Source: a virus
Lineage: Duplodnaviria > Caudoviricetes
Length of the DNA: 64,000 bases
Strand: one strand, 5' to 3'
Virus record (IMG/VR): IMGVR_UViG_3300049182_000044
Location: 32,001 to 96,000 of that record
A program made the position numbers and the translations under genes. A model generated the notes under the pieces. The model had not been told where the DNA came from, did no database searches, and worked only from the letters and a program-made list of their open reading frames with translations. This document shows positions 47,748 to 59,935 of this stretch, in pieces; within the stretch, counting starts at the first letter, position 1, and every line of letters starts with the position of its first letter.

Positions 47748-47823
47748 GGGGCGTTAACTCAGTTGGTAGAGTAGCGGACTCTTAATCCGTTTGTCGTAAG
47801 TTCGATCCTTACACGCCCTACCA
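47748..47823 (+). tRNA. tRNA-Lys(CTT)
   Basis: 76-nt cloverleaf, gcgga-ct-CTT-aa-tccgt, TTCGATC loop, encoded CCA. Confidence 0.95.
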
Positions 47824-47881
47824 AAGTTTCCATAGTAGTGCAGATGCGCGAAAGCGAGTTCTTACTTCTGCATTACTCACC

Positions 47882-47957
47882 GGGTCGTTAGCTCAGTCGG
47901 TAGAGCAGCGGACTTTTAATCCGTTGGTCGCGTGTTCGAGTCACGCACGGCCTACCA
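47882..47957 (+). tRNA. tRNA-Lys(TTT)
   Basis: 76-nt cloverleaf, gcgga-ct-TTT-aa-tccgt, encoded CCA. Confidence 0.95.
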
Positions 47958-47979
47958 AGTTTGTCGTAGTAAAGAGTTG

Positions 47980-48101
47980 TAACTGCCATGTGGGTGGGTA
48001 CCTGCATGTTGTCGTAAGAATGGCCAAAAAGCCGGACCTCAATTTGTGCGAGTCGAAAGGCTCTCACCAGTGTAGACAGTCCTTACAGGGGATCGCAGTT
48101 A
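47980..48101 (+). ncRNA. Structured inter-tRNA element
   Basis: taactgc/gcagtta closing stem; gagtc-GAAA-ggctc hairpin at 48050-48063. Confidence 0.35.
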
Positions 48102-48111
48102 GCTGTTACGT

Positions 48112-48187
48112 GGGGCGTTAGCTCAGTTGGGAGAGCAGCGAACTTTTAATCCGTTGGTCGCTGGTTCAAACCCAGCACGCCCTACCA
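48112..48187 (+). tRNA. tRNA-Lys(TTT), variant with A30.C40 anticodon-stem mismatch
   Basis: 76-nt cloverleaf, gcgaa-ct-TTT-aa-tccgt, TTCAAAC loop, encoded CCA. Confidence 0.9.
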
Positions 48188-51189: not shown

Positions 51190-51545
51190 TTATGGTTGTG
51201 TGCGTAGCGTAATCTACGCGAGACGTTTGCGTGAAGGCATGGCGGACGGGAGTTCGATTCTCCCCACCTCCACCACCAGCACTTTGAACACCCGGTGATG
51301 GCCGGGAGTTTGACCATGTAGGGTAACGGCCCCATAGCAGCCGCTACAGGACCAGTTGCGATACAACTGCAAAGCGCTGTTGATGGGGGTGACCTGGTTT
51401 CGACGGCGTGAGATAGCAAGAACTACAACTCAGCAGGCGATCGCTGACTCTTCGGAGTGAATCGAAGCAAAAATAGTAAATGCAAACGACTCGCATTTCC
51501 TGCAAGCTGCAAACGCCTAATTAAGCGTTTCACTTCAGGCTAAGT
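51190..51545 (+). ncRNA. ssrA: Circularly permuted (two-piece) tmRNA; outer ends approximate
   Basis: Acceptor piece ending GGGAG-TTCGATT-CTCCC-CACCTCC-A-CCA (51275) lies upstream of GGGGGTGACCTGGTTTCGAC (51385); G3.U70 pair; tag ANDSHFLQAANA* at 51482-51520 with H5 hairpin. Confidence 0.9.
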
Positions 51546-56385: not shown

Positions 56386-56419
56386 ACTGTAAAGCGTAGT
56401 CAACAATAACAAACAATAA

Positions 56420-56782: not shown

Positions 56783-57286
56783 ATGCTACGTTTTTACGAG
56801 CCACTGGAAATAGAATACGAACGCGATCACAAGTCGAAGGATCCTATCCTCGGATTCAGCAACGAGCGATACAAATTTCTTTCTAATTTCTATCCGTGTA
56901 CGGTGCGGATGTACGACATTGATTTTCCTTCTAGCGAATATGCCTATATGTGGCATAAGAGCGACGATCTGGATTACAAGAAGTCGATCCTGAACGCTTA
57001 TTCGTCTGGTCAGGCCAAGAAGCTGGGTAACAACAAGCGCCTTGAAGATCTAGGCATACTGCGCAAGGACTGGCCGGATGATCTGGTCCGCATCAAGGTG
57101 ATGTATGAAATACTAAAAGCGAAGTTCAGTGACATCAACCTTTGGGTGATGTTGCAAGCCACAGAGAACCGATACATAGAAGAAACGAATTGGTGGTCTG
57201 ACGTTTTCTGGGGAAGATGTAGAGGTAAAGGTGAAAACCATCTTGGCAGGCTTCAGATGGTGATAAGGCATGAAACACGACGTTAA
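56783..57286 (+). CDS. NADAR (YbiA-like) family protein
   Basis: FLSNFY, FPSSEYAY...K, AKKLG, W, KAKF, L.AT....IEE.....D.FWG, GENHLGRLQM.IR. Confidence 0.9.
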   Translation: MLRFYEPLEIEYERDHKSKDPILGFSNERYKFLSNFYPCTVRMYDIDFPSSEYAYMWHKSDDLDYKKSILNAYSSGQAKKLGNNKRLEDLGILRKDWPDDLVRIKVMYEILKAKFSDINLWVMLQATENRYIEETNWWSDVFWGRCRGKGENHLGRLQMVIRHETRR

Positions 57287-57303: not shown

Positions 57304-57759
57304 ATGAAACTCAATGTTGATCTCAAACCGAAAGATGAAAAGATGAATACGACTGCTTCCTCCTGTGACCAAGCCGCTGTTCCTGCAGAAGCTCCGGTCA
57401 CTGAGAACACTCCGACTACTGCACCGGCACCTGTAGCTGAGACTGCCGTCAACGTCACCACCGGTGTCGCATGTCTCGATCCAGGCCATGTGTACGAACT
57501 GGGCGGCGGCAACGTAGTCAAGTTCCTCAAGAAGGTCGATGGCACGCTGATTCATCACGGCACCACGAACGAGGAATGCCTGCAGATGTTGATTCATCGC
57601 ACCAAAGAACTCAACGCCAAATTCCCATGCAAGGAAAACGACCAGGCCATCATTCGCATGGAAGAGGCACTGATGTGGTTCAACGAGCGTACTGCGAAAC
57701 GCACTGCGCAAGGTGTTGAAACCCGCTATCAGAACCATGAGGACGTTCAGCACGGATGA
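57304..57759 (+). CDS. Tad1/Acb2-type signalling-molecule sponge (anti-Thoeris/CBASS candidate)
   Basis: KF...HGTTNEECL.MLI.R......FPCKEN..AI..MEEALMWFNERT..R..QGV resembles Tad1 HGV....LL.I...RL.......REN..AL..VEEALMW.N.R...R..R.V. Confidence 0.75.
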   Translation: MKLNVDLKPKDEKMNTTASSCDQAAVPAEAPVTENTPTTAPAPVAETAVNVTTGVACLDPGHVYELGGGNVVKFLKKVDGTLIHHGTTNEECLQMLIHRTKELNAKFPCKENDQAIIRMEEALMWFNERTAKRTAQGVETRYQNHEDVQHG

Positions 57760-57889
57760 TCAAGCCAAGGACGACGAAGACCCATTATGCCCTACTTGTA
57801 GATGGGTGCTGTTCATCTGCATAGGACTGCTGGTTCTTCTTAGCGTCTCTTGGCCGTTCATAGTGCCGTTCTTGAAAACTGTAAAGTAA
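57737..57889 (+). CDS. 50-aa membrane protein with CxxC
   Basis: Hand translation MRTFSTDDQAKDDEDPLCPTCRWVLFICIGLLVLLSVSWPFIVPFLKTVK*. Confidence 0.5.
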   Translation: MRTFSTDDQAKDDEDPLCPTCRWVLFICIGLLVLLSVSWPFIVPFLKTVK

Positions 57890-57894
57890 GGTCA

Positions 57895-58573
57895 TCGAAT
57901 CGAATCATTGAGTCGTGGTGACACGACATTGTGCATCTGCGTAAAATGCGTTGGTAGTCAATATGGACCGGATGAGGCCAAAAGCCGTTGATCCCGATTC
58001 AGGATGTTTGGCGTAACGACGCAACCGAAAGGCGTATAAAACATTAGCCCTAGCCAGTGCGGTACTTAAGTGGACGGCTGCTAGCGCATAATGGATGAAT
58101 GTTATCAAATTCGGCGAAAGCTAAGCTCTCCGGTAGTAACGTTTCCGGGTCACAGGTACCTCAAACGGTCCATACGCTTCGGGCTTGTCCCTTGCGCACA
58201 CCTACCTAAACAGCCACCGAGCAGTGACTGCTGAGTATGCCAACGCCGAGCCAAGCCTAGAACGATAGTCACAGGTAATCCTTCATAGCGACGACGCCTA
58301 AGGCAGTCAAGCGTAGAAGCGACACCACGGTGAATGTCCGATTAGGAAGGTGTAGAGACTGGTAGGTAACCACCGTAACAGCTGCTTTAACTTATGGGCG
58401 TGTCCCAACTCCGAACGCGACGGAGGTGAAGCAGCAGGTGAAGGCACAGTCCGGGCCATCAACGGTATGCGACACTAATCGAGGCCGGCCTTGTAAATGG
58501 GTCGGTGTACTCGAAATAGCTATTACCGCGTATAGGCGGCGAAAGCCGTGGTGGTGAGAATACGATTCGACTC
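57895..58573 (+). mobile_element. Group I intron-type ribozyme without evident host ORF; ends approximate
   Basis: P AAATTCGGCGAA (58107), Q GCCAACGCCGAGCCAAGC (58239), R GAAGGTGTAGAGACTG (58346), S AAGGCACAGTCC (58441); P3 gttatc/ggtaac, P4 ttcggcg/cgccgag, P7 gactg/cagtc, P8 cacc/ggtg, GAAA loops. Confidence 0.85.
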
Positions 58574-58586
58574 TTATTTTATAGAC

Positions 58587-59054
58587 ATGAAACGCTCAGA
58601 ACTACAAGCCTTACTACGTGAAGAGTGTAATCCCAACATAGTGCTAGCTACGGTTGGCTCTTGCTGGGAGTGCTCTTCACATAGTCGAAACGGTGGATAC
58701 TACTTCATTTATGAATTTTCTTCTAAGAAGAAAGTTCTGTTGCATCGACTAGCCTACAAGTTAGTCAAAGGAAAGATTCCAAAAGGCCACGTGATTCGGC
58801 ATCGTTGCGATAATCGTGGGTGTTTGAAGCCTAGCCATTTGATTAGCGGAACCGTCGGTGACAACAACCGAGACATGGTAGAACGAGGTAGGCAAGCTCG
58901 TGGCGAACGCAACCGCCACGCTAGGCTGACTGAAGCTCAAGCTCGAGAAATAAAGTATTCCAAGGAATCGAACAAGGTACTGCGTGAACGCTTCAACGTG
59001 CACCGCAATCTTGTGACAGGTATCCGTAACGGTACCTACTGGAAACATATTTAA
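58587..59054 (+). CDS. HNH homing endonuclease (HNH_3 / I-HmuI-like)
   Basis: LLHRLAYKL.KG.IP.GHVIRHRCDNRGC..PSHL..GT..DN.RDM..RGR, C-terminal HTH-like LTEAQAREIK. Confidence 0.9.
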   Translation: MKRSELQALLREECNPNIVLATVGSCWECSSHSRNGGYYFIYEFSSKKKVLLHRLAYKLVKGKIPKGHVIRHRCDNRGCLKPSHLISGTVGDNNRDMVERGRQARGERNRHARLTEAQAREIKYSKESNKVLRERFNVHRNLVTGIRNGTYWKHI

Positions 59055-59077
59055 CAACTACAACTGAAGGAACTCTA

Positions 59078-59467
59078 ATGAGTGCTATCGCTCTCCTGAA
59101 GCAGCTGCGCGGACTTGTTCCCACAGCAGAACTGCAGGGAAAGATTGACCAAGTTATCGCTGACGAAAACGTGGTCGAAAACGTAGGCCGCCATGAAGTT
59201 GGCAAGATCGTACGCTTTGCTCCTGACACCAGAGCACCTTTGTTCGGAACTGAAGCAAAGGTCATGCGCAATCGCGCAACGAGTAACGGGAAGGTGTTGT
59301 ACGATCTGGCTCTCACCGACGGTGACAGCGAAGAAGGATACTACGAGCGCTATCCGATCATCGGAGTTGATGCATGTTTCGTTCGTTCCCTCGACCCGCG
59401 TGAAGAGCAACTCGGTCAAAACGCAGAAACCGAAGCACGAATTGCAGACATTCGTACTGCAGGATAA
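59078..59467 (+). CDS. Hypothetical protein
   Basis: 129 aa, AAGGA RBS. Confidence 0.7.
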   Translation: MSAIALLKQLRGLVPTAELQGKIDQVIADENVVENVGRHEVGKIVRFAPDTRAPLFGTEAKVMRNRATSNGKVLYDLALTDGDSEEGYYERYPIIGVDACFVRSLDPREEQLGQNAETEARIADIRTAG

Positions 59468-59551
59468 GTTGTAAAGAACAGGCCGTTAATTCGGCCTGTC
59501 CTCACCTTCAAACTGTAAATGGGTCGTGTAGACCAACCACATAGGTGACCC

Positions 59552-59935
59552 ATGTTTGAAAATACTGAAGCCCTCCTGATCGACTTCGAGGCGAAAAAGC
59601 GCCCCATCAATGTCGATCTTATCCGTGAAGCCCTCAATCGTGACCGCGAAGCCGTTATGCGCAATGGCGATGAAGATATCGCCGAGCGTTTCGACAGCCT
59701 CGCCAAGTGCGTCGAAATTCAATGCTCCGAGGGCCACTGGAATCACAACGAGTACATGTACGGAATGGCGAATGGCTTGATCCTCGCCCTCCACATTATG
59801 ACTGGCTCCGTCAACGTCGAGCCTCCCTACCTCGATCGTCCTGAGAAGTGGCATTCTGAATCAGGTGCCGAAGAGCCTACTCCGCCTAACCCTAAGCGCC
59901 GGCTCGGTGACGGTACGGCTCCCCATGTGAAATGA
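59552..59935 (+). CDS. Hypothetical protein
   Basis: 127 aa; HWNHNEYMYGMANGLILA motif. Confidence 0.7.
   Translation: MFENTEALLIDFEAKKRPINVDLIREALNRDREAVMRNGDEDIAERFDSLAKCVEIQCSEGHWNHNEYMYGMANGLILALHIMTGSVNVEPPYLDRPEKWHSESGAEEPTPPNPKRRLGDGTAPHVK

Follow-up and report, generated by a model that had tools for sequence, protein, structure and literature searches.

The window analysed here comprises 64,000 nucleotides (nt) and corresponds to bases 32001-96000 of the record IMGVR_UViG_3300049182_000044, a 281.6-kb jumbo phage sequence that was obtained from a soil metagenome. At positions 57906-58558 it contains a genuine group I ribozyme with a complete catalytic core, which is assigned by its sequence to class IC3, the class of bacterial tRNA introns. 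The RNA lies in the leader of a gene for an HNH homing endonuclease, and ARAGORN, run with introns of up to 3 kb, found no tRNA around it. We give an even chance to the explanation that an IC3 intron was displaced from a tRNA and became lodged in the HNH leader as part of a selfish intron/endonuclease cassette. The arrangement is unusual in that it joins two known selfish elements; it is not a new kind of RNA.

Assignment of the RNA to the tRNA-intron class

An original prediction, made from the sequence of the window, had placed a complete group I core between an open reading frame (ORF) that stops at 57889 and the HNH start codon at 58587. In this prediction, no tRNA or recognisable conserved gene was interrupted, the HNH gene lay outside the fold, and the RNA followed the promoter-like sequence ACTGTAAA at 57878. 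Each of these statements was borne out by the analysis described below, and both ORF coordinates were correct. A comparison with the Rfam group I model (RF00028) had been proposed as well and was less conclusive. At the gathering score of 50, no group I match was found in the window; a permissive search located the core at 58057-58434 with 19 bits (E 0.049). On its own, this score is weak evidence. Bona fide members of the tRNA-intron class barely pass the threshold of RF00028, with scores of 53-57 bits.

With a search pattern based on the shared R element, loci were found in viral, metagenomic and bacterial-genome sequences, more than 120 in each of the three sets. ARAGORN recognised split tRNAs in 84 of the 122 viral and 92 of the 120 metagenomic matches. 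The split genes code mostly for tRNA-Leu(UAA), and further for Met/Ile-CAU, Arg-CCU, Lys and other tRNAs; the bacterial carriers include Nostoc, Bradyrhizobium, Burkholderia and Acidobacteria. The retrieved family is the classical IC3 family of tRNA introns.

A covariance model (R1) was built from 32 non-redundant viral tRNA introns, leaving out the window RNA and the metagenomic locus L003. R1 matched the window at 58058-58570 with 44.2 bits (E 7e-12) and set the 3' end of the intron at G58558; held-out controls scored 72-198 bits. In the row of the window RNA, all 34 core pairs of the family model are standard, among them those of P3 (6/6), P4 (7/7), P5 (2/2), the P8 base (4/4), P9 (5/5) and the outer helix (5/5). 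A structure-aware alignment of the family supports the fold itself: 95% of the cells are paired, compared to 31-41% with slid partners, and double changes occur at 33 pairs. The P7 pseudoknot cannot be held by a covariance model and was therefore checked separately across 363 family sequences. The covarying pair is A-U in 196 members, G-C in 133 and G-U in one, without a single mismatch, and the window RNA carries the compensatory G-C form, GACUG/CAGUC. The R1 score, the standard core pairs, the covariation in the family, and the G-C form of P7 thus confirm the group I core, with its P3-P8 and P4-P6 helices and the junctions J3/4, J4/5, J6/7 and J8/7, well beyond chance.

R1 additionally placed exon, P1 and P2 at 58058-58093; the posterior probability was low and this placement was judged spurious. 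Scanning with the pattern GTAGAGACTGGTAGGTAACC gave no match, and GAAGGYAYAGTCCGGRCC gave chance matches in coding sequence only.

Splice sites and flanking helix

The 3' end of the RNA reads GGCGGCGAAAGCCGUGGUGGUGAG(58558)^AAUACGAUUCGA, where ^ marks a splice junction. GGCGGCGAAAGCCGUGGUGGUGAG^AAUA aligns to the family sequence ..GAAAG...AGUGGUAAG^AAAA, and R1 aligned its 3' end to GUGGUGAG^AAUA. Because the aligned members have ends that are defined by tRNA exons, homology firmly places the 3' splice site at G58558^A58559, in front of the HNH gene.

The 5' end, AUCAUUGAG followed by GUCGUG-GUGA-CACGAC (57904-57927), matches the family order of L1, guide and P2 (..AAuUUGAG plus a GNRA hairpin), and the guide itself matches the family consensus ..AAuUUGAGugcc... 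Over 563 kb of this genome, UUGAG is followed by a GNRA hairpin at just three places. Natural tRNA-Leu introns start with CUU^CAUUUGGAG (L215, L234), and the window RNA reads AAU^CAUUGAG. The spliced junction would be U^AA, identical to that of tRNA-Leu introns, and both splice junctions would lie in a 7-base loop, AAU^AAUA, which has the geometry of the tRNA-Leu(UAA) anticodon loop, with three bases on the 5' side and four on the 3' side. The intron proper is placed at 57906-58558 because of this 3+4 geometry, the U^AA junction, and the resemblance of CAUUGAG to CAUUUGGAG. A 5' boundary after U57905 is thus preferred from geometry and homology, but it is not firm. In P10, AAU (58559-61) pairs with AUU (57907-09), with G57910 as a wobble partner, and this pairing runs on into the helix formed by the flanks.

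This helix consists of two parts. Positions 57895-902 and 58563-70 form 8 Watson-Crick pairs, and positions 57880-91 and 58572-83 form 12 pairs, three of which are G-U. The free energy of the flank duplex is -23.8 kcal/mol, compared to -7.2 +/- 2.5 kcal/mol for shuffled sequences (best shuffle -18.1; z about -6.6). The duplex of the opposite strand reaches only -16.6 kcal/mol. It is weaker because of the G-U pairs, and the flank helix is therefore a feature of the plus-strand RNA. Its 3' strand begins four bases past the 3' splice site, like the anticodon stem in tRNA-Leu(UAA) introns (^AAAA plus stem), and its 5' strand stops three bases before U57905 (tRNA-Leu: stem plus CUU^). According to Zaug, McEvoy and Cech (1993), as cited in PMC3984707, the Anabaena tRNA-Leu intron needs the exon pairing in the anticodon stem. 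No further copy of the flanks was found anywhere in the genome.

The original prediction had reported two pairings between the ends of the RNA. The one between tcgaatcg (57895) and cgattcga (58563) was confirmed and is part of the 8+12-bp helix. The other one, between gagtcg (57910) and cgactc (58568), is a perfect complement of six bases. Because the two overlap on the 3' side, they cannot coexist.

Besides the flanks that imitate an anticodon stem, the RNA has kept a putative guide next to P2, a P10 of 3 base pairs (bp), P9.0 and the terminal G, which constitute the equipment for splicing. Judged by its sequence, the ribozyme is probably still functional.

Three further placements of the splicing elements were tried and rejected. 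A guide GUUUGG (58006-11) that pairs with UCGAAU would fall into a peripheral domain whose closing helix has 14 bp. A P1 formed by AUCAU and GUGGU (GUGGU at 57915) would destroy P2 and has no P10. A distal 3' site past the HNH gene (G59070^AAC, in frame with the next ORF) is without P9.0 context and allows for a P10 of 2 bp only.

Peripheral domains

With 653 nt, the intron is about three-fold longer than is usual in the family (185-300 nt). Responsible are five inserted domains, each of which folds as a closed domain: one after P2 (144 nt, between P2 and P3) and those in P5 (about 115 nt), P6 (about 80 nt), P8 (about 60 nt) and the P9 region (about 75 nt). A blastn comparison of the whole RNA with about 240 family loci gave matches to the core only, and the inserts are common to none. 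The P2.1-like 5' domain is absent from all family members, and the 11-nt receptor of the family P8 is replaced in the window RNA. The coordinates of all features are listed in the following table.

Table 1. Features of the intron, its flanks and the neighbouring genes; positions refer to the window.
Feature	Position	Strand	Remark
Promoter-like motif ACTGTAAA	57878..57885	+	candidate phage promoter motif; extended form AAAACTGTAAA
Flank helix, 5' strand	57880..57902	+	12 bp 57880-91, 8 bp 57895-902; minimum-free-energy fold
AAU, last three bases before the intron	57903..57905	+	place of CUU (positions 32-34) in the tRNA-Leu(UAA) anticodon loop
Intron proper	57906..58558	+	653 nt, IC3-type group I ribozyme; 3' end from R1 at G58558
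Internal guide AUU-GAG	57907..57912	+	AUU, P10 strand; GAG, P1 strand
P2 hairpin GUCGUG-GUGA-CACGAC	57912..57927	+	read from sequence; position as in family P2 with GAAA loop
Inserted 5' domain (P2.1-like)	57946..58089	+	closed by 14-bp helix 57946-59 / 58076-89; fold of 57928-58092
P3	58101-06 / 58365-70	+	
P4	58110-16 / 58244-50	+	inside P3
P5 base	58120-21 / 58239-40	+	carries insert
P6	58256-60 / 58342-46	+	carries insert
P7	58357-61 / 58447-51	+	GACUG / CAGUC; holds G-binding site
P8 base	58371-74 / 58437-40	+	within 58371..58440; inserted branched extension
J8/7 AAGGCA	58441..58451	+	with 3' strand of P7; read from sequence
P9.0/P9 outer helix	58455-59 / 58551-55	+	insert holds TGTAAATGGGTCG at 58492
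P9 hairpin	58536-49	+	GAAA loop
Terminal G	58558	+	
3' flank/exon	58559..58586	+	AAU (P10), A, helix strands 58563-70 and 58572-83; ends 3 nt before HNH ATG
HNH_3 homing-endonuclease gene	58587..59054	+	155 amino acids (aa); Pfam PF13392, E 2.4e-12
CUU	57871..57873	+	only canonical upstream P1 partner (3 bp) of GAG 57910-12; alternative 5' site after U57873
Small ORF	57737..57889	+	50 aa from ATG 57737, 58 aa from GTG 57713; one hydrophobic helix
Acb2/Tad1-like gene	57304-57759		upstream of ribozyme; precomputed Pfam match PF24729, Acb2_Tad1_hairpin (anti-CBASS/Thoeris sponge family)
NADAR-domain protein gene	56783-57286		precedes Acb2/Tad1-like gene

The 13-mer TGTAAATGGGTCG occurs twice. The copy at 58492-58504 makes up the 7-base loop and the 3' stem of a hairpin in the P9 insert, and the copy at 59514-59526 is located at a promoter-like site before the gene at 59552. 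The copy in the P9 insert may be an internal promoter of the HNH gene, or a coincidence.

The HNH gene and its leader

The HNH protein has the conserved His/Cys/Asp/Asn positions of the HNH_3 domain, and its invariant columns recur in seven homologues. The closest of these, P0002, is 53% identical, and its N-terminus matches that of the window protein (Met at 58587). P0002 is encoded in the metagenomic contigs L003-L006, where its gene follows a gap of 585 nt. ARAGORN identified in this gap a tRNA-Met(CAU) with a 248-nt intron inserted between positions 33 and 34; the core strings of this intron resemble those of the window RNA, and the P0002 gene starts about 140 nt behind the split tRNA. In contig L007, the P0002 gene follows a different, intron-less tRNA(CAU), and the downstream sequence is identical. 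The HNH clade P0001/P0002 is therewith found in two contexts, each of which adjoins the intron family or its tRNA target, and L003-L006 and L007 constitute a natural pair for the question of what the HNH enzyme targets. The surroundings (about 1 kb) of 242 other family members contain no such HNH gene. The codon usage of the HNH gene in the window is atypical for the phage, as expected of an incoming gene. In the phage, the tRNA exons and the spacer of the L003 layout are gone, and only 28 nt separate the end of the intron from the HNH start. No credible ORF exists within 57890-58586.

The genome contains 31 copies of ACTGTAAA, the strand of which tracks gene direction. Twenty-four of these are located at most 200 nt upstream of an ORF start, compared to a background of 35%, and the distance is usually 30-75 nt. 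Copies of (A)AAACTGTAAA, which include those at window positions 56386, 57878, 59512 and 60001, are likely a phage promoter or leader element. The distance between the motif at 57878 and the HNH ATG is 709 nt, and it shrinks to 56 nt if 57906-58558 is removed. This spacing is consistent with an HNH transcription unit in which the intron either invaded the leader or came along with it.

We therefore envisage the following course of events, for which the sequence is our guide. An intact IC3 intron would have left its tRNA and settled between the motif at 57878 and the HNH start codon at 58587. Inserts acquired in five loops (after P2 and in P5, P6, P8 and P9) would have tripled the size of an ordinary tRNA-Leu/Met/Arg intron core, and the 20-bp flank helix would stand in for the anticodon stem on which introns of this class depend. 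After excision of 57906-58558, the HNH start would be preceded by a hairpin leader of 42 nt. Intron and HNH gene would most likely move together as one selfish cassette, which may represent a step from an intron with a neighbouring free-standing endonuclease toward a mobile intron.

Alternative explanations

Several observations weigh against the displaced-intron explanation. At U57905, AAU and the guide GAG form a U-G pair only, whereas a canonical P1 needs YUU; efficient 5' cleavage at this position is doubtful. CUU at 57871-73 would provide a textbook P1, and a splice there joins ORFs in frame. A dedicated model of the 5' module, R2, recovered only J2/3-P3 and gave no score for guide and P2. 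Because R2 could not score this module, the assignment of guide and P2 rests on inspection and rarity. Furthermore, no relatives of the phage were found: blastn of the region against GenBank phages gave no match, and the search with the flanking proteins yielded only an unrelated 42-kb phage (L002) with one common domain. The intron-less alleles that the original prediction had suggested looking for in relatives did not turn up in these searches, nor did an HNH-less one. Among the sequencing runs, no RNA run is listed as containing the sequence; the single DNA run gave one identical contig, without joints.

If the 5' site is at U57873 and is spliced to A58559, the RNA would be an ordinary protein-gene intron, which would fuse a 53-codon ORF to the HNH gene (about 218 aa). 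The 36-nt L1 would then carry an internal promoter and clamp the 3' exon by an extended P10. The original prediction had named the restoration of an ORF spanning 57737 as the hallmark of such an intron, and an in-frame join does exist: ...TTC TT^A ATA CGA... is continuous with the HNH frame, and an in-frame stop is located 14 nt into the intron. Moreover, CUU/GAG and the P10 AAU/AUU reproduce the 3+3-bp pairing of tRNA-Leu family members, L1 inserts of 42-50 nt are known in L003 and L102, and the atypical codon usage is common to the small ORF and the HNH gene (codon scores 0.02 and 0.07; coding 0.41 +/- 0.23, out-of-frame -0.76). However, chance alone would place a CUU within 40 nt upstream in roughly every second case and produce an open in-frame join in about one of five. 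By geometric inference, the 6-nt linker (57874-79) is too short for the full flank helix, whose distal 12 bp would therefore have to open; the boundary at 57905 instead yields a tidy hairpin leader. The start Met of P0002 corresponds to that at 58587, the N-terminal extensions of the other homologues are unrelated, and no homologue of 200-270 aa was found in the HNH search. The fusion of a membrane helix to a DNA endonuclease would be odd and implausible. An atlas look-up showed a weak resemblance of the small ORF to membrane proteins of 50-60 aa that stand alone, and such a small membrane protein may be what it encodes, unless it is the 5' exon of the fusion. On balance, we consider an ORF-interrupting intron unlikely.

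The original prediction had inferred a free-standing ribozyme that gates or caps the HNH message, yields a circular RNA, or interrupts a small non-coding RNA. A capping or gating ribozyme of the GIR1 or riboswitch-ribozyme type was not sustained as the preferred explanation, as the RNA is an unmodified IC3 member with full splicing equipment. According to such an explanation, the ribozyme would now be part of the HNH unit and lack a cognate 5' exon; hydrolysis or a GIR1-like reaction at the terminal-G site, which is 28 nt away from the start codon, would release the HNH mRNA or mark it, or the fold and the 20-bp flank helix would gate translation. The poor P1 at the homologous boundary in combination with a fully conserved core agrees with a leader ribozyme, and so do the short distance of the 3' site from the ATG, the extension of the flank helix to 3 nt before it, the promoter-like motif directly upstream, and the perfect complementarity of the guide GAGUCG to the 3' flank (58568-73). 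Yet the core is not rewired relative to that of splicing introns, P10, P9.0 and the terminal G are all standard elements of splicing introns, and neither the GIR1 model (RF01807) nor the c-di-GMP-II aptamer model of Rfam had a match at E <= 10 in 57600-59200. Furthermore, no relatives were found in which the arrangement would be conserved. A domesticated leader ribozyme, whether it processes the message or gates it, is thus quite improbable in our view. More remotely, the free guide AUUGAGUCG could target tRNA-Leu(UAA) in trans, being complementary to CGACUU^AAU of the anticodon arm. A still smaller chance is given to an inert relic. It would have arrived recently with the HNH gene by illegitimate recombination, be unable to splice and be tolerated where it is, in a leader that codes for nothing; expression of the HNH gene would then depend on unspliced RNA or on the TGTAAAT element in the P9 insert. 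The broken P1, with AAU in place of CUU, would be in line with a relic; introns with incomplete exons do exist, for example the one in L291 with a duplicated 3' half of tRNA-Gln, and the HNH translation signals lie outside the intron. What speaks against a relic is that all invariant core positions and pairs are intact, despite a history long enough for five private closed domains, and that the two strands of the flank helix match precisely, including G-U pairs that only the RNA strand can form.

Genomic setting and observations on the intron family

The small ORF at 57737-57889 is the sole open frame at its position. No homologues of it were found, and the gene callers of both assemblies left it uncalled. 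The second assembly shows the same arrangement at the locus. A permuted (two-piece) transfer-messenger RNA (Rfam RF04321, 98.5 bits; ARAGORN tag ANDSHFLQAANA and stop) and three tRNA-Lys genes encoded by the phage are recorded under window positions 51221-51520 and 47748-48184. A tRNA-Met with a 221-nt intron that was proposed by ARAGORN at genome positions 113863-114173 is a false positive; located outside the window within a large tail-fibre-like ORF, it is supported neither by Rfam nor by R1.

IC3-type introns are common in the viral contigs of IMG/VR (L018-L137), where 84 of the 122 pattern matches are located in split tRNA genes. In L021, L032, L046, L065, L066, L095, L105, L110, L121, L124 and L129, the intron resides at the same site of one conserved protein-coding gene. 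Reviews stress protein-gene introns in phages (PMC4227781). In L024, L030, L076 and L137, two matches to the intron model are found about 500 nt apart inside one tRNA-Leu intron of 680-810 nt, as delimited by ARAGORN; these introns may be tandem or twin introns. In L218 (1-260), a contig that is truncated on the 5' side, the 3' end of the intron is followed by the whole anticodon arm of tRNA-Leu(UAA) (CAGACTTAAAATCTG); the insertion site therefore seems to be 5' of the anticodon stem and not in the loop. L291 (4770-5520), a metagenome-assembled genome of Gemmatimonadales, contains an intact tRNA-Gln and, about 400 nt later, an IC3 intron with the duplicated 3' half of tRNA-Gln and a degenerate 5' half.

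Significance and comparison with known systems

The usual view of tRNA-class group I introns is that they are small, contain no ORF and are bound to the anticodon loops of tRNAs. The RNA described here departs from this picture in three respects: it has five large extra domains, it persists outside a tRNA with a surrogate anticodon stem, and it is joined to an endonuclease gene in a short transcription unit. How introns and endonuclease genes come to form a single mobile element has long been asked, and the RNA offers a natural snapshot for this question, as well as a test case for the exon context that an IC3 ribozyme needs. If the RNA processes or gates the endonuclease mRNA without splicing, it would represent the second case of group I ribozyme domestication, here in a bacterial virus.

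Folds of the group I type in mRNA leaders are represented by the c-di-GMP-II riboswitch-ribozyme of C. difficile and by the lariat-capping ribozyme GIR1 upstream of I-DirI. The core of GIR1 is specific in having a P15 pseudoknot and a lariat fold and in lacking P1. Like these systems, the fold in the window is found in a 5' leader, immediately before a protein gene, which in the case of GIR1 also codes for a homing endonuclease, and its ends pair. In contrast to GIR1, its core aligns, unrewired, to those of splicing introns. In IStrons, too, the ribozyme comes first and the gene for a mobility protein follows (PMC4227781). Here, however, the gene belongs to HNH_3 and does not code for an IS200/IS605 transposase, and the family-defined 3' site is located before the gene and not after it.

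In collaborative homing, an intron is combined with a neighbouring free-standing endonuclease, for example the psbA intron of S-PM2 with F-CphI, or T4 mobE with I-TevIII (PMC3984707, PMC6083498, PMC2790892). The locus in the phage resembles these pairs in that an ORF-less intron is immediately followed by a free-standing endonuclease gene, and L003, with a tRNA-Met intron and then an HNH gene, represents the classical form. It differs in that no host-gene exon separates intron and endonuclease and that the intron lies in the leader of the endonuclease itself; what is seen is adjacency only.

The closest relatives of the RNA are the IC3 introns of bacterial and plastid tRNAs, as known from tRNA-Leu(UAA) of Anabaena/Nostoc, tRNA-Ile of Azoarcus, tRNA-Arg and tRNA-fMet. 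Their core sequence is nearly identical to that of the window RNA and shares with it the strings CAAAUUCGG..GAAA, CCGAGCCAAGC, GGUGUAGAGACU and AAGG.A.AGUCC, and a P9 GAAA hairpin followed by GUGGU.AG^. The 3-bp P10 and the exon-exon pairing at the splice sites are common features as well, and a putative 3-bp guide is located by P2. The Azoarcus intron comprises 205 nt (PMC13168695), and P5 extensions have been reported to be absent from IC3 (PMC11835236). In contrast to the known IC3 introns, the RNA in the phage is located outside a tRNA anticodon loop, its flanks form a hairpin only, and it is 653 nt in length instead of about 185-300 nt, with inserts in P2.1, P5, P6, P8 and P9. Furthermore, its exon triplet mismatches the guide, and an endonuclease gene directly follows.

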